64,000 nucleotides of DNA, from the IMG/VR virus record IMGVR_UViG_3300043256_000348, positions 28,948 through 92,947 of that record. One strand, given 5' to 3'. Position 1 is the stretch's first letter. Each line of letters starts with the position of its first letter. Positions 5,832 to 48,750 of this stretch are shown one piece after another. Under the pieces are notes generated by a model. It did not search any database. It was not told the DNA's origin and was given only the letters and a program-made list of their open reading frames with translations. This stretch comes from a virus. The translations under genes were made by a program, and so were the position numbers.

Positions 5832-6844
5832 GAATCCTAGTCTTGTGCCCACAACCGCTTTGGGGCAGCCGATTATCCGCCAGTCGCCGGCACGACGTGA
5901 AGGCCCTGGAGCGACGGCCCGACGTGACGCTGAAGATGTCCGGCTACGGCTGGCCGGACTGGCAACAAAACGACACTGCCCTGGCGAACGTGCGGCGGAT
6001 CATGCGCGACGCGGACTGCGTGTACACCTATAAAATCGGAGGCAACCCCCGCAAGGGAGTGCCGGCGGCGAACGATCCCGGCAGTATAGCGGACGGCTAC
6101 CTCGTTGTCCAGAAATGGCAGGAAATGTGGTGGACCGGCACGGGGCCGAACGATCCGGAGCCGGCGTGGAAGCAGGCTGTCGCCGAGCGTGTCGGCTTGG
6201 CGATTCTATCCCACGCGAACGACGTGCCCCGGATGATGGAGGCTGCCAAGCGGGGCGTGCAGGTCGCGGTGATCCCCCACGCCGCCGAGCCCCAGGTGTT
6301 CGCCCAAGCAGCACAGGAATGGCCCGGCCGCAAGATCGACGTGCTGTTGACGGGGAGCATCGGCGAGAACCACTACCCCCTGCGGGGCCGCTGGCAGAAG
6401 CTCATGCAGGACGGCAGGCTGCCGGGGGCGTGCTACCAGCATCCGCACCCGGGCTACTGGTTCAACGGCGAGCAGCAGGCCGAGGCCCGGGTCCGCGACT
6501 ACGCACAGAACCTCGGCAAGTCGAAGATCGTGCTGGGCTGCACGAGCCGCCACAGGTATGAACTGGCCCGCTTCCCGGAGGCCGCGATGGCGGGGGCCAT
6601 CCACGTCTCGGACATGCCGGAGATTCCGCTGAAGGGATACGAGGATTTCATCGTGCCGGTCGAGGCTGACTGGTCGGACGAGCGACTGATCCAGACGGTG
6701 GCCGACCTTCTGGCGGACAAGCAAAAACTGAGCGTGATGAGCGAGCGGGCGCAGGCCACTGCCCGGCAGTCGTTCACTTGGGAAAAGTGGGCTGATCGAT
6801 TCGTGGACGCGGTGAAGCGAACACTAGGAGGACCCAATGGCTAA
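5828..6844 (+). CDS. Glycosyltransferase (CgeB / Glyco_trans_1_2-like)
   Basis: IPHAAEP..F, IDVLLTG...YPLR, SKIVL, RFPEAAMAG, FTWEKWADRF. Confidence 0.8.
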   Translation: MRILVLCPQPLWGSRLSASRRHDVKALERRPDVTLKMSGYGWPDWQQNDTALANVRRIMRDADCVYTYKIGGNPRKGVPAANDPGSIADGYLVVQKWQEMWWTGTGPNDPEPAWKQAVAERVGLAILSHANDVPRMMEAAKRGVQVAVIPHAAEPQVFAQAAQEWPGRKIDVLLTGSIGENHYPLRGRWQKLMQDGRLPGACYQHPHPGYWFNGEQQAEARVRDYAQNLGKSKIVLGCTSRHRYELARFPEAAMAGAIHVSDMPEIPLKGYEDFIVPVEADWSDERLIQTVADLLADKQKLSVMSERAQATARQSFTWEKWADRFVDAVKRTLGGPNG

Positions 6845-11849: not shown

Positions 11850-12425
11850 CTAAAGCAGCCTCTCCCATCGCTGCTTCCGGGACTTGGTCTGTGGCGGGGC
11901 AGTTGCTCGTGTCTTGCGATTTACGTTACTAAACCGCTGGGGCCTTGCGTTGACGATCTCCCCACCGGGTTTCCATCCGGCGGCCTTGTATATCGTGCCT
12001 GAATGTACGTCAACAGCCAAGTAGCTTACCGCCCGATTAAGGAACGGCCATTTCCGCTTAACGAGTTTCGCCATCACGGCAAGCATCCGGGAAGCCGTGT
12101 TCTTCGGGGCATCATCGCAAATCGCCAACCGTCGCAACTCGATAGTCTTCCCATCGCACATCGCCCGGATAATCGGCTGGGACCATATCGCCACCGCGTA
12201 ATAGTTCCCGCCGTGCTCGGCTGCGTACGCCACGCTCGTGTGGCCACAAAGCAGATTGCCAAGATCGGTCTTCGGGAGCATGCTGTGCCACTTCATGTTC
12301 AGCTCGCGTGCCCGGCGCATACCGATTTCGACAATGTCAAACTGAAGCGGCGAGGTCGGAATCGAACCGCCCGTTTCCGCTTGGAAGAGCGGAAGTGCTG
12401 CCTCTACACTATCGCCGCGTACCAT
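11850..12425 (-). CDS. mom: Mom-like adenine-modification (GNAT-fold) protein
   Basis: IELRRLA..DDAPKNTASRML...VSY.....HSGTIYKAAGW. Confidence 0.78.
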   Translation of the reverse strand: MVRGDSVEAALPLFQAETGGSIPTSPLQFDIVEIGMRRARELNMKWHSMLPKTDLGNLLCGHTSVAYAAEHGGNYYAVAIWSQPIIRAMCDGKTIELRRLAICDDAPKNTASRMLAVMAKLVKRKWPFLNRAVSYLAVDVHSGTIYKAAGWKPGGEIVNARPQRFSNVNRKTRATAPPQTKSRKQRWERLL

Positions 12426-30620: not shown

Positions 30621-31015
30621 CGGACGGCCGAGGCGTTCGCTTCTGCGATTACGGGTTGTCGTTGCCTACGCGAACCGCCGACTGGCCGCCGGCCGGGATT
30701 GTGCGGAGCCCGCGAACCGTACAGTCTTGCCGTTTCAACTGGCTCAAGTGTCAGATATGCGGCAGGTCGCTGCCGTTGACAGAAGATGGGCAGGTGCATC
30801 ACATCATCGGAGGCGCTGGCAGGAGCGATGAGGAGACAAATCTGTTGCGCCTCGGGGGACCCTTTGAGTGCGGCTGCCACGACGAGAGCTGGAGCGTGAT
30901 GCTACCGCTGTCGCTGTGGGCGAAGTGGAAGACGGACCGTGAGAACCTTGACTGGGCCCGGCTGGCCGTGCTGCTTGGGCACCACCTGCCGGAGCCGAAA
31001 CCGCCGGGGAGGTGA
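30596..31015 (+). CDS. HNH-like protein (start uncertain)
   Basis: CQICG...VHHIIGG...NLLRL...CGCH. Confidence 0.55.
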   Translation: MAGRNDKLTDGRGVRFCDYGLSLPTRTADWPPAGIVRSPRTVQSCRFNWLKCQICGRSLPLTEDGQVHHIIGGAGRSDEETNLLRLGGPFECGCHDESWSVMLPLSLWAKWKTDRENLDWARLAVLLGHHLPEPKPPGR

Positions 31016-31018
31016 GCT

Positions 31019-31444
31019 ATGTCGTTGACTAAGATCGCACTCAAGGCAGAACTTGCGTCTTTCAAGGAAGCCTTGCAACGATCTAAGGGCAACGCCGAGC
31101 GGCTGGCACGCGAGGTGGATCGGTTGCAAGGAATGGTGGACGAGGTTCAAAACGAAGCCAGCGCTTGCCGTTCCGAGGCAGTGGACAACAAGCTCAAGCT
31201 ACTTGAACTACAAGCCATCGTGGACAAGCTACCGAAGACGGCGGACGGCGTGCCGGTTGTTCCGGGAATGTCCCTTTACGTTGATGGCCCATGGGAAGTG
31301 CAAACCGCCTTAATGCTGAAGGGCGGAAGTCAACCAAGTCGTGGAGACACATGGTTGCGATTGTCTACGGGAAATTACTACAGCACTCGCGAAGCCGCCG
31401 AAGCAGCAGCCAAGGAACGCGAAGGAAATGCTTTACAATCCTGA
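31019..31444 (+). CDS. Hypothetical coiled-coil protein
   Basis: GGAGG SD; LPKTADGVPVVPG...YSTREAAEAA. Confidence 0.65.
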   Translation: MSLTKIALKAELASFKEALQRSKGNAERLAREVDRLQGMVDEVQNEASACRSEAVDNKLKLLELQAIVDKLPKTADGVPVVPGMSLYVDGPWEVQTALMLKGGSQPSRGDTWLRLSTGNYYSTREAAEAAAKEREGNALQS

Positions 31445-32221: not shown

Positions 32222-32246
32222 ACATGAGCTGGCCGAGAATCTGCTA

Positions 32247-32275
32247 TTTACGGCTCCCGGGAAAGACGGTATAAT
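32247..32275 (+). promoter_or_regulatory. Sigma70-like promoter TTTACG-17-TATAAT
   Basis: Near-consensus boxes with a 17 bp spacer at the head of a long non-coding region. Confidence 0.6.
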
Positions 32276-32715
32276 CGGCAGCATGACATCCACATGAGAC
32301 AAAAAGACGGGCCCGACCTGACGGCCGAGCCCTGAGTGGCCGGCGGCGGAACGAACGCCGGGCGGCCAGCCACGAAAGCAGGATGGGTGCAACCGTGACT
32401 CTAACAGTCAGTATACCAGAAATCCCCTTGGCAGCAAGGCCCATTCGGGCGGGTACTTTTCAGACGACTCCCCCGATCTTCGGACCGGGTTGGGCCGGCC
32501 TATATGACCGGCTCTTTTTTTACTCCACGGATACAGTCGTTCCCGCTGGGCCGTCCCCGATCTATTCGGCGGTGGCCCTTTTCTATGCGCCCGGGGCCGG
32601 AACAGCGTACACGGGGGGTCGCGTCCCCGCCGGCCCTCTCGGCGGTTGGCAACAGCGGCAAGAGACCCGCCCGCGACGGACGCGGCCAGCCGCCCTGACC
32701 TTCCTGTTGTGGATG

Positions 32716-32857
32716 TGCGGCGGCGGCGTGGCAGCGCCGGGTAAGGGGTTGTCTTTAGTGACAGCCTGTGGAGGGAAGATTGAAAGCGATACGCCTACTG
32801 CCAAAGTCACTAAGAGTATCGCACCATGGAGCCGGGTGGGGAATCCGGCCCGCCGTG
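32716..32857 (+). repeat. tRNA-like structured repeat, copy 1
   Basis: tgcggcgg/ccgccgtg closing stem; GCCGG-loop-CCGGC arm. Confidence 0.65.
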
Positions 32858-33294
32858 CACTTTTCACCCCGCCAGCGTACAGCAGGACTCGCGACCTGCC
32901 GGGGTGCTTGCCGGCTCTGCGTGGAGAACCCACGATCGTTGCCGAAGACATAGCCCCGAATACATGGGCAAGGGAATGGTATCCCGACGCGGCTCACGAC
33001 TCAGTGGCCCGGAAGCATCTTAGGTAGGCGTAAGCCAGACGGATGCAATACTGAGACAGTTCGCAGTTTGGCGGCTTCGATCAGGTCGCATCCGCTGCGG
33101 AGGTCGAACGGCAGGCCGCAACGCTGGGACAGCGCAGCGAATCGCCTGGGTCGGCACACTGGAGGTGACCTTGGCATGGAGATTTTCTGCTTTGCCCTGC
33201 CGGAAGACGGAGTAAAATGGATGGCCGGGCGGCACGTCGAAAGGCTAGCGATGGTGCGACGTAAAATCCAGTCCGGCATCGGGGATTCTGTGCG

Positions 33295-33329
33295 TGCTAC
33301 CGCGTCGCCCGTAGGGTGACGCGGTAGCA
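33295..33329. other. 16-bp hairpin tgctaccgcgtcgccc-gta-gggtgacgcggtagca
   Basis: Near-perfect inverted repeat (one G-T pair). Confidence 0.8.
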
Positions 33330-33373
33330 GGTACAGAATACAACAGTTCTTCAGTTGTCAGGACGAACGAACC

Positions 33374-33568
33374 ATGAGCGTATCGAAACGGCGATACTAC
33401 GAGTCTACGATCCGCAGCACGGGATTCGTGACTGAGCGGCTGGTGGAAGAGACCGGGATGGCTCCCGAAGCACTTGACGAGGTAATCAGCGGCTACTTCG
33501 CTGAGGTAACTGCCGGGGCGGAGCGTGAACCTGGACTGCCGCCGGCCGCCTTCGGGTCGGACGTGTAG
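33374..33568 (+). CDS. Hypothetical protein
   Basis: AGGA SD + ATG. Confidence 0.5.
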   Translation: MSVSKRRYYESTIRSTGFVTERLVEETGMAPEALDEVISGYFAEVTAGAEREPGLPPAAFGSDV

Positions 33569-33592
33569 CTTGACCTATTCCAAGAGGGCAGC

Positions 33593-33821
33593 GATGGACG
33601 ATGACCAGCCGGGTGCGCAGGCGACCTTAGAGGAAAAACTGTGCTGGATCGACCGGCACCGGCCACCGCCGTACAAGCCGCCGCACTCCGGATCGTGCGA
33701 CTTGCAGGACGTGGTGATGTCGAGCCGGGAGAAGGGCGGCAAGCCGGACCCGAACGGGAAGTGGATTCGCCGGAGCTGCCGGCTGTGCGGGCGGTTCCAC
33801 AGCTACCGGAGGCGGGCATGA
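33593..33821 (+). CDS. Small Zn-binding protein
   Basis: H..C...CRLCGRF; coupled to the primase. Confidence 0.5.
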
Positions 33822-34732
33822 CGAACACCGCGTGGGTACGGGTATCGAAGGCCGAGCCTTGCGTCATTTGTGAGCGACCAGATTGGTGTCGCGTCTCAGC
33901 TTGTGGAGGGACGGCCCATTGTATGAGGCGGGAAAGTGACAGGAAGTGGCCAGGCCCGGCTGGCGGTTTTCTTCACCGGCTGAATGGTGAGCAGGTAAGG
34001 GCTGTGCAGAGAACGCCAGCGAAGGCGACAAAACCGAAAAAGCCCGTCGCCTACTGGACCGCGGTAGCGAAGCGGTGCTACGAGCACCCTGAGGCGACCG
34101 GCATGCGCGAGTACGTCGCGGAGGTTCTCGGGTTGTCGGTCGACGTGGTGAAGCGGTTCCGTGTCGGCTGGGGCGACGACAGGTACCGCGGCCTGGACTA
34201 CTCGACGTGGCCGTCGCGGGACGCCGCGGGGAGGATCGTCGGGATCACGCGGCGGTACAGGGACGGGGCGAAGCTGACGGCCGAGGGCGGGACACCAGGA
34301 CTGTTCTACTGTTATGGCTGGCACAGGCTGTCCGGGACGATCCTACTGCCGGAGGGGGCTTCTGACACGGCAACCCTGGTACAATTAGGATTGTCGGCGG
34401 TCGGTCGGCCGAGCAACGTGTCGGCGCCGTGGCTACCTGAGTTGCTGGGGCCGTACCGGGAACGGGAGATTATTGTGCTAGGCGAGCACGACAGAAAAGA
34501 ACCGGGCGTGCGACCGGGGTGCCGTGTGGACTGCCGGGGCTGCTCGGCGTGCTGGCCAGGTCGTTTCGGGGCGGAGGCGGTCGCCCGGCTGTTGGCGGAA
34601 CAGTTGAAACGCTCTGTCACTTGGTGGATCCTGTCGGTGAAAGATGTGCGCGTGTGGCTCGCCGAGAACGACGGAGCAGTGGACGTGAGGCTGGAGGACT
34701 TCGAGCCGGCGATGGTCGGTACAGTTCGGTAG
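33818..34732 (+). CDS. Primase-like protein (Zn-binding + TOPRIM)
   Basis: PCVICERPDWC...CMR; RDAAGRIVGI.RR; LPEGASD; AVGRPS; GEHD; KDVR. Confidence 0.8.
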   Translation: MTNTAWVRVSKAEPCVICERPDWCRVSACGGTAHCMRRESDRKWPGPAGGFLHRLNGEQVRAVQRTPAKATKPKKPVAYWTAVAKRCYEHPEATGMREYVAEVLGLSVDVVKRFRVGWGDDRYRGLDYSTWPSRDAAGRIVGITRRYRDGAKLTAEGGTPGLFYCYGWHRLSGTILLPEGASDTATLVQLGLSAVGRPSNVSAPWLPELLGPYREREIIVLGEHDRKEPGVRPGCRVDCRGCSACWPGRFGAEAVARLLAEQLKRSVTWWILSVKDVRVWLAENDGAVDVRLEDFEPAMVGTVR

Positions 34733-34737
34733 ACAAG

Positions 34738-34813
34738 CACGGCGGCGGCCTGGCGAACCAGGACGTTAAATGGCCCCGCGCCATAGAAGCCGGGGGAGAA
34801 CCGGCCCGCCGTG
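34738..34813 (+). ncRNA. 76-nt cloverleaf tRNA-like element (repeat copy 2)
   Basis: CACGGCGG/CCGCCGTG stem; CCTGG/CCAGG, ATGGC/GCCAT and GCCGG/CCGGC arms. Confidence 0.6.
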
Positions 34814-34837
34814 TTTTTCAGAAAGGAAAACGAGAAG

Positions 34838-34954
34838 GTGTCAAACAGCAAAGGCAGTAAGGAAAGGTGCTCAGTCTGTGGGTTACGCAAGCGCGGGTCG
34901 AATCATAATAACGGGCAACATCACAAAAAGGCCCTAATGAAACAGAAAGGATAG
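34838..34954 (+). CDS. 38-aa C2H2-like micro-protein
   Basis: GTG start; CSVC.....H....HH; lies exactly between repeat copies 2 and 3. Confidence 0.5.
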   Translation: MSNSKGSKERCSVCGLRKRGSNHNNGQHHKKALMKQKG

Positions 34955-34958
34955 ACAG

Positions 34959-35074
34959 CACGGCGGCGGCGTGGCAGCGTCGGGCGACTGGTCACACGTA
35001 TCCGAGAACTGGCTGACCAACAGCGGAGAAGGTGACTTTTAGTGGAGCCGGTGTGGGGAATCCGGCCCGCCGTG
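34959..35074 (+). repeat. tRNA-like structured repeat, copy 3
   Basis: cacggcggcggcgtggcagcg...tggagccggtgtggggaatccggcccgccgtg. Confidence 0.7.
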
Positions 35075-35094
35075 TTTTTACAGAAGGAGAGAAC

Positions 35095-35292
35095 ATGCGT
35101 TGCGAGCAACCAGACAAAGATGTGCCCGAGATCGTTTGCGGACATCCATTGCCGTGTCCTTGGCATACAGTGAAGATCGACACCACCTGTTCGCCACCGG
35201 TCATTCATATACCAGTAACAAACCCCCGGGCACTGCGACCGAAGATTCTCGGACCACTCAAAGAAATCGCGGCTTGCATTGAGGAACTATAG
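35095..35292 (+). CDS. Small Cys/His protein
   Basis: AAGGAG SD; C...CGHPLPCPWH. Confidence 0.55.
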   Translation: MRCEQPDKDVPEIVCGHPLPCPWHTVKIDTTCSPPVIHIPVTNPRALRPKILGPLKEIAACIEEL

Positions 35293-35295
35293 CAG

Positions 35296-35338
35296 CACGG
35301 TAGCGGCGTGGTACTGCCCCGCGAGCACGCCCGCCGTG
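35296..35338 (+). repeat. Truncated repeat, copy 4
   Basis: cacggtagcggcgtgg...cacgcccgccgtg followed by ttttcagaaaggga. Confidence 0.6.
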
Positions 35339-35357
35339 TTTTCAGAAAGGGAAAGTC

Positions 35358-35459
35358 ATGCCTGACAATGTGTACAAGTACGACGAGGACGATGAAGCTG
35401 CCGACGACTGGGATGATGAAGAAGACGACGGCTGGCCGGACGATGGCGATGATGAATAA
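35358..35459 (+). CDS. 33-aa highly acidic peptide
   Basis: MPDNVYKYDEDDEAADDWDDEEDDGWPDDGDDE after the repeat-borne SD. Confidence 0.45.
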   Translation: MPDNVYKYDEDDEAADDWDDEEDDGWPDDGDDE

Positions 35460-35490
35460 CTAACTGCCCACGGGGCAAGGGAGGTGAGTG

Positions 35491-36153
35491 ATGAACTTAG
35501 TGAAACCTTCATTTGTGATTTTACAGTGCTCGTCAGCTCCATTGACGTTGATAGAGAGGGCGGGCAGAACGTGCTACAAGTCGGAGGAAAAGATGACTCC
35601 GGCTTCTTCGGAAAAGTTCGTGGAAAGGATAATCGAACGAGGGCACTTGTCAGTCATCGAACACGCATCTGCAACGGTCAAGTTTGTGGTTGATCGTGGA
35701 GTGAGTCACGAGTTAGTCAGGCACAGGCTTTGTTCTTTCAGCCAGGAGTCGACTCGCTATTGTGATTACAGCGGAAGCGTTACGTTCGTGATTCCGCCTT
35801 GGTGCACTTCGCTAACAGAGGGTGAAATAGAAACCAGCAATGTTCTACCTATACGGAGCGCCTTTCTGCATGGTGGAGCGGCCGATCATTGGCTGTTGGC
35901 TATGGCTAAAGCGGAACTATCTTACAGAGAATTGAGGAATCATCAGAACTGGTCGCCACAACAGGCTAGGTCTGTTCTGCCGAACTCCCTCAAGACGGAA
36001 ATAGTTGTGACAGCCAATTTTCGCGAGTGGCTGCATATCTTTCAATTAAGAACCGCCCCTGCTGCCCACCCACAAATGAGAGAGATCATGATTCCCGTTT
36101 GTGAAGAATTCCAGAGGCGCTTTCCCATTGTATTTGACAGGAAAGAAGAGTAA
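35491..36153 (+). CDS. thyX: FAD-dependent thymidylate synthase
   Basis: GHLSVIEH, HELVRHRLCSFSQESTRY, ARSVLPN, N.REW.H...LR...AHPQMR. Confidence 0.96.
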   Translation: MNLVKPSFVILQCSSAPLTLIERAGRTCYKSEEKMTPASSEKFVERIIERGHLSVIEHASATVKFVVDRGVSHELVRHRLCSFSQESTRYCDYSGSVTFVIPPWCTSLTEGEIETSNVLPIRSAFLHGGAADHWLLAMAKAELSYRELRNHQNWSPQQARSVLPNSLKTEIVVTANFREWLHIFQLRTAPAAHPQMREIMIPVCEEFQRRFPIVFDRKEE

Positions 36154-36201
36154 CCCCGCCCCGTCGAGTGCCGGCGGGGGTGAAAGCGAGCGAGGTGAGT
36201 A

Positions 36202-38541
36202 ATGGGTACTGAGAAGGTGGAAGAGAGCAAGAACCGTCCCTTGAGTTGTCCGTGGTGTGGCAGCACAAATACTGAACCTCTCTCTGGTGAGGTAGGTGAA
36301 TGCTACCGTCGCTGCGCCCAATGTAGAAACTTTGTGCCGGTAGATACCCAGAAGCGATTGGAGGCCGAGATCGAGCGGCTACGGAGCAAACTCGCTGCAA
36401 TCGAGGCTGCTAGGATTCGCACAGATAAAGAAGATGCGTTGGAACGATAGCCGCCAAGCCGGGAGGTGAGTGATGGCCGAAACTAATGTTCTCAAACCTG
36501 CCCTGTCGTGCCACTACTGCGGACACGTCATCACTGATCCTGATGAGCAGGCCGATCCGTACCGCAACCCTGATACCGATGAGGCGATGTGCAGCGAGTG
36601 CTACCGTGAGCACTTCGAGTTTAGTTGTTGTTGGTGTAAAGAGAGCGACAACGTGGACGTACAGCACAAGATGCTGGTGATTGAGGACGCATACGACGAG
36701 ATGCCGGAGTGGCGGAAGGGCGTGTACCAGATTGGGCGCCGACCGTACTATGCCGATGGCATGATTGAAATGCACTTAATACAATCGGCCCTCACATGGA
36801 TTGGCAGCGTGCCGGAAACACTGCATATCGAGTATTACCCGTGCGGCCACTTATGCAGCGAGTGCCAAAACAAGATCACAGAAACCGCCAAGGCGGGAGG
36901 TGATGATGACTGAAATACCTGAAGATTTACGGACCATAGCGACGTGTGCAGTTACGGATGGGTGCCCAACTGAGGCCGCCATGCTCGAAAGGGCGGCACA
37001 CGAGATCGAGCGGCTGCGGGAAGCTGCCCTGGCTGGCTTGGCTATCGCAACGATTCACGTTCGTGACGAAGACACGTCCGTAGAGCAAATGCAAGCGGCC
37101 TTGGCGTTACTGAACCGGAATTCTTGGTTAGGCCGGGATGAATCTAAGCCACTCCGTTTTATCCTGGACCGCGTTTGGCCTGATTGGTTGAGACAGCAGA
37201 CACAAGCCTCTGACGCCAAGGCGGGAGGGGATGATGAATGTTGACGAAGCGAAAGCGATAGTCCAGGCGGATATGCCTGATCGTGCTGTAGCTTACAGCG
37301 ATGTTGTTCGGCCTGTAGAAGCTGGTCGTGTACTGATGGCCGAGGTCGAGCGGCTGCGACGGGAACGCGACGTGGCAATTCACGAGGGTGGCCATACGCC
37401 ATCACGAATTGCTTATGGTTATGATGCCGACCGAGACGAAAAGGGATATTTCGTTGATAACGTCTGGGCAGGCAAAGAGTACCTAGACGCGGTTAAGATG
37501 ATTGCCGCCTGTGCGGCGATAGACGCGAAGCCAAGGAAATGGCGACGATGGCCCGCAAAATGAAGGCGCGAGGTTATCACAAGACTGCCCAAGAGGCGGG
37601 AGGTGAGTGATGGCAAATAGAAACTTTAATTTCAACCGGAACCAAGATCAAACCCGCCACCAGATCACGCCACTAGGTGCAGCTATCGTGGAGGCCCTAC
37701 CTAACCGGAAGAAAGTTGCGCAGCTCAAACGAGACTTCAAGCGAAGAGGGGTATGTCCAAGTTCGGCCCTTTTTACTGCGGAAGTCGCAGCTACATGGGC
37801 CGCAAAGGCGGGAGGTGAGTGATTATGTCACAAAAAGAGTTGGAAATAGTCCTTACGGCTACGGGTCCCTTGTTGGCTAAAGGTCCTGTGGAGTGCAGGG
37901 GCTGGGGAGACGGCGGTCAAGATTTGTGTGTCTCAGGCCCCATTGCCAATATCCTGGTTTCACGCAATGGGCAGTCTGAATTCAGCTTGCGTATTCTGGG
38001 CGATGGTCGGTTGATTTTCACGAACTATCGGGGTTTGTACGAGACTACTGTTACACCGAACTTGATGCTGAGGCCAGATCGGCCTTGGGAAACCGCCAAC
38101 GCAGAGGTAAGTGATGTTACGCCGACAGGAGCGTGATGAAATCGTGCGGCGATCACCAGGCCAATGTGCTGGCGGACGTGGCTGTACGTGCTGTCAGCCT
38201 GATTGTGACTGCGGCTGCCGTGACGATTGCCAAGTCTTTCGGCTACAGACTCTACGCCGGCCGGAATGGGTCCGCAAGGCTACAGAGGCAAGAGGTGAAT
38301 GATGAAATGGCAAGAATCGTTGTCGCTCGGTTGTGCTGATTCTACGGAGCAACGGGAGGCATGGGCTGAGATCGAGCAGCTGCAAGGCATCGTGAACGAA
38401 CTGCGAGGCGGCATTGCTGATCTACAGCGACACGTCAAAGCTCGCTCCGAGGATGAGCCCCCGATGTTCATCCCAGCGTCGATGTGTGCCGTCATCGGTG
38501 CCATGCACAAGGTCACTGAAGCCGCCCAGAAAGCTCACTGA
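36202..38541 (+). other. Array of eight small ORFs (starts ~36202, 36473, 36906, 37234, 37610, 37825, 38114, 38302) joined by a conserved SD/start junction
   Basis: Repeated gccaaggcGGGAGGTGAGTGATG junction; shared EIERLR segment. Confidence 0.75.
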
Positions 38542-48646: not shown

Positions 48647-48719
48647 AGCCGGCGGGAAGGCGTAGTCGCCTCCTCAGTTTCATACGCTGGGAATTCAGGT
48701 GCAATTCCTGAGCCGGCCA
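48647..48719 (+). tRNA. Degenerate tRNA, anticodon CAT (Met-like)
   Basis: Acceptor gccggc/gccggc with 1:72 mismatch; anticodon loop TTCATAC; T-arm tcagg-TGCAATT-cctga; no CCA. Confidence 0.55.
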
Positions 48720-48750
48720 CTTGAATCACAATCGGGTATCGGAACAACCG

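Follow-up and report, generated by a model that had tools for sequence, protein, structure and literature searches.

That phages produce RNAs shaped like transfer RNA (tRNA) but with no assigned use has been recognized for fifty years, rnaC (species 1) and rnaD (species 2) of T4 being examples. In this study, we analyzed four tRNA-shaped repeats, designated c1 to c4, in a 64,000-nucleotide stretch of phage DNA (the window), which covers bases 28948–92947 of IMG/VR record IMGVR_UViG_3300043256_000348, the complete 92,947-bp genome of an uncultured phage with direct terminal repeats. The repeats sit on the + strand in a replication and nucleotide-metabolism operon, and they stand between protein genes, not in a tRNA array. 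We concluded that they are anticodon-less, tRNA-shaped elements, none of which is a tRNA, and their identity as members of a large, undescribed, phage-borne family of RNA elements is well supported. Two types, A and B, are distinguished below by their closing stems, and the window copies belong to type A.

Like some type B copies of this family, T4 rnaC lies in a tRNA array, and it is a phage RNA of about 140 nt in which a canonical T arm (CCGGG-UUCGAAU-CCCGG) sits on the closing stem and the interior is not that of a tRNA. Unlike our elements, however, rnaC and rnaD occur in one copy each, with no dispersed multi-copy family, are not placed between protein genes, and have neither a conserved U-tract nor a hypervariable middle. 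They showed no sequence or model similarity to the family, the only trace being a local 7.3-bit match of covariance model R2 (described below) to the T arm of rnaC.

Plant mitochondrial t-elements are described by Forner et al. (2007; PMC1920247) as tRNA-like acceptor and T-arm structures beside mRNAs that RNase P and RNase Z use to form the 5' and 3' ends of the mRNAs. The window elements share with them a tRNA-like fold beside mRNAs on the sense strand, and the mechanism is the one that we propose here; t-elements are nevertheless organellar and non-homologous, their processing was mapped experimentally whereas here we infer it, and the window copies are set apart by their U-tract and the greater length of their helix. 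In T4-like phages, the PeSL repeats are conserved intergenic stem-loops that flank variable small open reading frames (ORFs) in hyperplastic regions and act as exchange points (PMC2839356; PMC4122927). The micro-ORFs between our elements also differ between relatives, but PeSL carries an early promoter and a simple hairpin, whereas our elements are 43–150 nt long, have a tRNA frame and show no detectable promoter. Bacterial and phage Y RNAs of the YrlA type contain a tRNA-like module with T and D arms, and some are substrates of RNase P or the CCA-adding enzyme (Chen et al., 2014; PMC4201824). Their topology is permuted in comparison with ours, the 5'/3' stem being the Ro60 site and the acceptor-like stem an internal hairpin, and they adjoin a Ro60 gene; a Y RNA was rejected here as no TROVE (Ro60) gene was found in the phage. 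Antisense RNAs of the C4/CI type (P1 C4, P4 CI) were also rejected, since the interiors have no complementary phage targets beyond shuffled controls and the Rfam c4-a1b1 match (E 4.7) is noise.

Structure of the Elements

Repeat and pattern searches recovered four related elements (Table 1), and a regular-expression search of the whole genome found no fifth copy in 92,947 bp. The 3' core CCGGCCCGCCGTG has exactly three exact occurrences, all inside the c1–c4 region, with c4 departing from it by two mismatches; when up to two mismatches were allowed, the window held 23 matches against 6.7 expected. Folding closed each element with a GC-rich helix, which in c1 is maintained through U-G and G-U wobble pairs. 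The searches and the folding thereby bore out the initial annotation, which had placed four stem-closed elements here with G-U variants in the first copy, but the 8-bp length given for the stem was not upheld, the closing helix measuring 9–10 bp.

A 6-bp hairpin, CGGCGU-GGCA-GCGYCG, directly follows the closing helix in c1 and c3, and a GCCGG-loop-CCGGC arm is stacked directly on the 3' helix strand in c1–c3. The second copy folds as a cloverleaf with a z-score of -3.8; both the T-like arm of three copies and this 76-nt cloverleaf had been described before and were recovered. The fourth copy retains both conserved ends and has no T arm and no D arm. In c2–c4 the helix passes at once into TTTT(T), and in c1 the TTTT begins 1 nt past the 10-bp helix. 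The borders also agree with the earlier description: c2–c4 begin 3–5 nt after a TAG, c2 lying 5 nt after that of the primase-like gene, and their last bases, TTTT(T)(A)CAGAA(A)GG, provide the small ORF that follows with its Shine-Dalgarno sequence.

The middle arm has a 5-nt loop in c2, is branched in c1 and c3, and is missing from c4, and in no case is it the 5-bp stem with 7-nt loop of an anticodon arm. The 5-bp T stem and its stacking are present in c1–c3, with loops GGGAGAA or (U)GUGGGGAAU and not UUCRANY. ARAGORN called no tRNA at any of the four sites; the Rfam tRNA model gave no match there even at E up to 10, nor did these sites have an Rfam match of any kind. Lacking an anticodon arm and recognized by neither ARAGORN nor Rfam, none of the elements is a tRNA.

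Distribution of the Family

Relatives were located through an alignment of homologs of the primase-like protein, by which 65 viral loci were fetched; a protein-pattern scan with the single primase sequence had found no relative, and it was the alignment-based scan that yielded loci. An exact 18-mer scan of IMG/VR returned chance matches in coding DNA only, the matches listed for loose two-gap patterns were GC-rich coding noise, and several stricter matches were also due to chance. In locus L007 (also G001), whose primase is 62% identical, four copies with the same ends lie upstream of the primase gene, each between small ORFs, and in one of these the T arm, GCCGG-TTCGATT-CCGGC, is perfect. Some 8 IMG/VR phages carry the type A stem, CACGGCGG/CCGCCGTG. 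Further IMG/VR phages and 39 metagenome contigs were matched by a strict type A pattern, and about 25 of these contigs appear to be true members.

With covariance model R1, for which only type A copies had been used, full-length matches of lower score were obtained in the more distant primase relatives L018, L030 and L042. In these copies the outer five helix pairs all differ (AGGAUCGG/CCGAUCCU), the eleven bases that follow, CGGCGGCGUGG, are unchanged, and the T arm is GCAGG-UUCGAAU-CCUGC. They define type B, with the stem GGATCGG/CCGATCC, which at least 35 IMG/VR contigs carry. Scans for the type B 15-mer, filtered with a second model (R2), yielded 47 copies in about 35 IMG/VR contigs, and R2 found 57 copies in 39 loci. 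Dozens of uncultured phages thus carry the family, often with 2–4 copies each.

Neither of two blastn queries, one type A and one type B, matched any of 50,697 GenBank phages. Among 185,579 bacterial and archaeal species genomes, the type B pattern occurred on 4 contigs only, three of them small contigs (2.8–5 kb) of metagenome-assembled genomes (MAGs) and one a 648-kb Thermoleophilia contig, and an origin as a host tRNA gene was rejected on this count. Given the relatives in IMG/VR and metagenomes, the lack of a GenBank phage match and the mere four species-genome contigs, the family is real, phage-borne and unstudied. It is large and absent from Rfam and from the GenBank phages searched, and it combines a conserved tRNA top half with a free middle. 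The covariance-model search of phages suggested in the initial annotation did find a family, and the ORFs between copies vary among related phages, a question that had also been raised there. The four MAG contigs with type B elements (L444–L447) are assigned to Caulobacteraceae, Crocinitomicaceae, Thermoleophilia (the 648-kb contig, possibly a prophage) and Pirellula, which suggests either hosts beyond one phylum or mis-binned phage contigs.

Conservation, Covariation and tRNA Likeness

In a MAFFT seed alignment of nine copies (A7), which was not fitted to a model, 117 of 117 helix and T-stem cells are paired, with two-sided changes at 6 pairs. Among the 57 model-aligned copies, an alignment that leans towards the model, 97% of 705 cells pair, compared with 28–48% after the partners are slid. 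A comparison of type A with type B shows two-sided changes in five of the eight closing-helix pairs and in one T-stem pair. The ninth helix pair was tabulated over 33 distinct type A copies (G-C 14, U-A 5, G-U 3, C-G 1, A-U 1); as it covaries, the type A helix is truly longer than a tRNA acceptor stem. The D-like arm is also compensated, with CCUGG/CCAGG in c2 vs. CGUGG/CCACG in L042. Covariation among homologs, a point on which the first proposal could have failed, is therefore present.

The likeness to tRNA is clearer in the relatives. Type B copies have a 7-bp acceptor with a U or A discriminator, compared with the 9–10-bp helix of the window copies. A canonical T-loop, T[TG]C[GA]ANN, is found in 23 of the 57 copies, and the form TTCGAAT in many relatives. 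The D region GGUGGGAA accompanies the T-loop UUCRAAU (e.g., UUCGAAU), and different loops are seen with the remaining D variants; contact between the two loops, as in the tRNA elbow, would lead one to expect this pattern. These D/T subfamilies cross the divide between the types, the type A copy of L441 and the type B copy of L412 both combining GGACAGUG with UGCAAUU. The D arm of the L011 copy resembles that of tRNA-Leu, and by comparison with E. coli tRNA-Leu we take it to be close to the bacterial form. Elements are included in the tRNA arrays of L366 and L321, the order in L366 being element, 9 nt, tRNA-Met, 2 nt, element. Canonical T-loops, a 7-bp acceptor, D/T subfamilies and placement in tRNA arrays together justify the term "tRNA-like" that was given to the repeats at the outset.

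No copy has a usable anticodon arm. A "tRNA-Pyl (CUA)" that ARAGORN called inside the L030 type B element (5875–5947) owes its CUA to the middle hairpin loop, CUCUAAC; it uses a different acceptor register and is probably spurious. Selenocysteine tRNA (tRNA-Sec) was rejected as well: the best RF01852 score was 18.2 bits vs. the 47 needed, for an L007 copy only, and the window gave nothing.

Conservation is strongest in the frame. In the subfamily that includes c1 and c3, a common scaffold, odd T-loop GUGGGGAAU included, is shared by five copies drawn from four phages, and their middle arms are unrelated in sequence and length. Every copy within one phage has the same stem, and the lineage-wide switch between the A and B stems suggests a sequence-specific reader or concerted evolution.

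Three further observations concern unusual members. A type B paralog of 153–156 nt occurs in L042 (1467–1619), L366 (11035–11188, -), L393 (4751–4903) and L397 (9386–9541, -) and has no Rfam match; its interior of about 90 nt is nearly identical in L042 and L366, and the L393 and L397 copies are alike in length and scaffold. An 81-nt tRNA-shaped RNA in L321 (7925–8005, -) and L324 (12033–12113, -) combines a normal D arm with a type B acceptor and T arm and has a GGCA tetraloop in place of the anticodon loop; in L321 it adjoins tRNA-Met and a type B element. In L245 (2960–3330, -), three different tRNA-like pieces stand in tandem, none of them called by ARAGORN: one of about 140 nt with the T arm GCCAG-TTCAAAT-CTGGC, a type A copy, and a 51-nt mini form made of an acceptor, a CGC-UUGGCA-GCG hairpin and a T arm.

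Strand, Position and Cassettes

The sense strand folds more stably than the antisense strand in 40 of the 57 copies (c1, -61.9 vs. -52.0; c3, -51.5 vs. -40.1 kcal/mol), and wobble pairing is biased in the same direction, with 14 G-U cells vs. 7 A-C cells. When 19 copies were checked for position, 11 were found to start 0–7 nt, and 13 to start 0–13 nt, after a same-strand stop codon, a candidate for the next ORF lay within about 40 nt in 15, and all were co-oriented with their genes. Comparing the longest open frames of the two strands gave results too noisy to be of use. The strand bias and the position behind stop codons favor the view that the RNA is made as part of an mRNA. A scan of 34700–35500 for promoters of the sigma-70 type, the only type that it covers, showed no promoter-like site, and a search of the phage for a PF00940 phage RNA polymerase gave no match, the control search also being silent.

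The genes pre1, pre2 and the primase are conserved in G001 and L008. None of the roughly 480 loci fetched contained a relative of micro-ORFs 1–3, which lie between and after the window copies. In the window phage the block bounded by elements follows the primase gene, whereas G001 has it between pre2 and that gene. PeSL-flanked hyperplastic regions of T4-like phages behave in a similar way (PMC4122927).

Discussion

Considering all the above results, we propose that the elements punctuate the sense transcript in cis, through processing by tRNA enzymes and/or through weak termination combined with 3' protection, a reading in which our confidence is about even. In this reading, each element keeps the "top half" of a tRNA, that is, an acceptor-like closing helix, the 5' strand of the D arm (GCGUGG) and a T-like arm on the helix, with the anticodon domain replaced by an unconstrained hypervariable arm. 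Elements transcribed within the sense polycistronic transcript would act in cis by two routes. The frame may offer sites to host tRNA-end enzymes, RNase P acting at the 5' side and, within the U-rich trailer, RNase Z or RNase E. The type A version, with its 9–10-bp GC-rich helix and U-tract, may also form a leaky terminator or a 3'-protective stem. The outcome would be the same either way, each small accessory gene becoming its own, separately stable RNA segment. As a side effect, the near-identical 15–30-nt ends could provide homology for swapping accessory micro-genes, and we regard such recombination as a consequence of the elements and not as their selected function.

RNase P and RNase Z recognize a stacked acceptor and T-arm helix. 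Processing of the RNase P/Z type, one of three roles offered in the initial annotation, appears to be the most plausible cis role, and it would suit type B better than the type A copies of the window, because the type A helix runs to 9–10 bp and c4 has no T arm. Membership in tRNA arrays implies that the tRNA-processing pathway must handle the type B copies at least. The copies do not encode CCA, and their U-rich trailers lack C residues, which inhibit RNase Z when present in the trailer (PMC7479834). The minimal copy c4 keeps only the helix-plus-U-tract part. That first interpretation as a whole is partly supported, since the other two roles named in it, a decoy for anticodon nucleases and an attC-like site, fared poorly, as discussed below.

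Several points weigh against this proposal. The covariation between types A and B represents essentially one or a few independent events, and the large alignments had been made by fitting to the model. The pairing of positions -1/73 and -2/74 in type A disfavors canonical cutting by RNase P and RNase Z. The window T-loops GGGAGAA and GUGGGGAAU are non-canonical, and c4 lacks the T and D arms altogether. Moreover, the ends are conserved in sequence, not in structure alone, and the paralogs of one phage share a stem, which points to a sequence-specific reader that lies outside what the proposed model explains.

The elements could also be plain, if branched, intrinsic terminators whose tRNA likeness reflects ancestry only, the GC-rich helix and U-tract ending or attenuating transcription after genes. 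As in such terminators, a GC-rich helix followed by a run of U stands just after stop codons: 12 of 15 type A copies have at least four U within 8 nt of the helix, the helix reaches 9–10 bp, with covariation, and runs right up to the U-tract, and c4, reduced to a hairpin and U-tract, has the classic shape. We nonetheless consider this account unlikely. The U-tract is missing from about 20% of type A copies and from about half of those of type B, c1–c3 enclose 60–125 nt with two or three further arms, interiors of 40–140 nt with several branches would close slowly, and a terminator has no need of the conserved D strand and T-arm subfamily loops. Only c4 is a compact hairpin; a consensus terminator scan reported no site on a closing helix, its sole site within the elements being a 5-bp hairpin in the T-arm region of c3. 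Efficient termination in particular is improbable because three to four copies stand in series before needed genes (thyX here, the primase in G001, with four copies directly upstream), separated by gaps of 4–40 nt that leave no room for a promoter, none being detected, and because in tRNA arrays such as that of L366 a tRNA follows the U-tract. If the elements were instead genes for stable tRNA-mimic RNAs that are excised and then work alone in trans, like T4 rnaC and rnaD, for example as decoys for, or substrates of, enzymes or defense toxins recognizing the tRNA acceptor end or elbow, their intergenic placement would be incidental. The array-borne type B copies, with a 7-bp acceptor, an unpaired or variable discriminator and canonical T-loops, would suit such genes, as would the constancy of the acceptor sequence across the paralogs of a phage, the 153-nt paralog, which appears to retain its interior across four phages, and the confinement of the family to phages, with only 4 hits in 185,579 species genomes. 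The window's own subfamily fits poorly, since its interiors are unrelated even where the scaffold is the same; c4 has no tRNA-like parts, type A helices exceed the length of an acceptor stem, antisense targets in the phage are not above chance in shuffled controls, and the phage has neither Ro60 nor, by our search, a CCA-adding enzyme. Independent trans-acting RNAs therefore seem improbable to us. We are still more doubtful of a related version, in which the whole family would consist of phage-wide "tRNA-scaffold" RNAs whose constant acceptor/D/T frame is read by one lineage-specific partner and presents an exchangeable middle arm, acting in trans after excision and CCA addition. Such RNAs could be decoys that titrate defense toxins aimed at the tRNA acceptor end or elbow, or anticodon-free chargeable carriers, some D arms being tRNA-Leu-like, and a single partner would explain the shared stem of paralogs. 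The decoy for anticodon nucleases suggested at first is unlikely, as no copy has an anticodon-type loop.

Selection at the DNA level, for shuffling micro-genes at cassette boundaries that are attC-like recombination sites or PeSL-like repeated homology, would account for the position of the elements immediately after co-oriented small ORFs and for the combination of conserved ends and a variable middle. ORF content between copies is wholly different in related phages, the block has moved relative to the primase, and the same genome has other junction repeats. Yet no PF00589 tyrosine recombinase was found in the complete phage genome, the control search having detected one in 14 of 14 genomes; no target duplications, attC-type core sites or PeSL-type promoter half were seen. 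The structure of attC is read as single-stranded DNA, whereas here sense folding is favored, wobble pairs lie on the sense strand and copies are co-oriented with genes, and conserved T-loops, D/T subfamilies and tRNA-array membership are features of RNA. Boundaries of this kind, including the attC-like sites first considered, are thus very unlikely. That the elements are decaying tRNA pseudogenes without present function is hardly credible: the degenerate T-loops of the window, the missing anticodon arm and the resemblance of c4 to a deletion remnant would agree with decay, but among phages with primases of only about 60% identity the 17-nt and 13-nt ends hardly vary, compensatory and wobble changes keep the helices, the odd T-loop GUGGGGAAU is conserved in at least four phages, and the genome is compact.

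Should the proposed cis punctuation proceed by cutting with tRNA enzymes, the elements would provide a bacterial-virus case of mitochondrial "tRNA punctuation," and also a ready-made means to express and swap tiny accessory genes. The lineage-wide stem switch points to a putative reader that is worth finding.

Gene Neighborhood and Minor Observations

The four elements are interspersed with the genes of the operon (Table 1). On the + strand, a 1.1-kb non-coding stretch with c1 is followed by two small conserved genes, the primase-like gene and c2, and then by a 38-aa ORF, c3, a 65-aa ORF, c4, a 33-aa acidic ORF and thyX. The host is probably a planctomycete, judging by homologs of the primase-like protein that are named from Planctomycetes (Schlesneria, Planctomycetaceae).

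Table 1. Coordinates, in the window, of the elements c1–c4, their arms and the neighboring genes.
Feature	Position	Strand	Description
c1 (type A)	32714..32865	+	Closing helix 32714–32723 with 32850–32859; D-like hairpin 32724–32739; variable branched middle; R2 97.8 bits
c1 T-like arm	32831–32835, 32845–32849	+	GCCGG 32831–32835, loop GTGGGGAAT, CCGGC 32845–32849; then TTTT 32861–32864
c2	34737..34818	+	76-nt cloverleaf; closing helix (P1) 34737–34745 with 34806–34814; TTTTT 34814–34818
c2 arms		+	D-like 34746–34765 (CCUGG-CGAA-CCAGG); middle hairpin 34770–34784; T-like 34789–34805, 7-nt loop GGGAGAA
c3	34958..35079	+	Closing helix (P1) 34958–34966 with 35067–35075; D-like hairpin 34967–34982; variable middle arm; R1 86.9 bits
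c3 T-like arm	35047–35066	+	TTTTT 35075–35079; scaffold as in c1, interior unrelated
c4	35295..35342	+	Minimal form: one 12-bp imperfect hairpin (GGCGUG pairs with CACGCC), then TTTT; R1 39 bits
pre1	33374–33568		Small conserved gene ahead of primase
pre2	33594–33821		Small conserved gene; overlaps primase start
Primase-like gene	33818..34732	+	phrog_239; conserved core gene used to locate relatives; c2 abuts its stop codon
Micro-ORF 1	34838..34954	+	38 aa, Cys/His-rich, GTG start; between c2 and c3
Micro-ORF 2	35095..35292	+	65 aa, Cys/His; between c3 and c4
Micro-ORF 3	35358..35459	+	33 aa, hyper-acidic; after c4, ahead of thyX

No Pfam or PHROG family was matched by micro-ORFs 1–3. The micro-ORF 3 peptide contains 16 Asp/Glu residues and, as its sole basic residue, one Lys, and from its composition it is a possible mimic of DNA or another nucleic acid. 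The stretch at 32222–33373, upstream of the primase module, is the 1.1-kb one with c1 and has no convincing gene; it also contains a classic terminator at about 32490–32521 (GGCCGG...CCGGC plus T7) and a 26-bp near-perfect hairpin at 33285–33339.

A second repeat family, GC(A/G)xGGGAGGTGAGTxATG, comprises a ribosome-binding site and start codon and lies at gene starts (31003–31021, 35475–35493, 36186–36204 and 36457–36475), recurring along the small-ORF array downstream of thyX. Two odd tRNA-like genes were also noted in the window: a tRNA-like gene at 12346–12418 (-), which ARAGORN calls tRNA-??? with a two-base "anticodon," and a "tRNA-Met" at 48647–48720 (+), which begins directly after a TGA stop codon and has the T-loop GTGCAAT.

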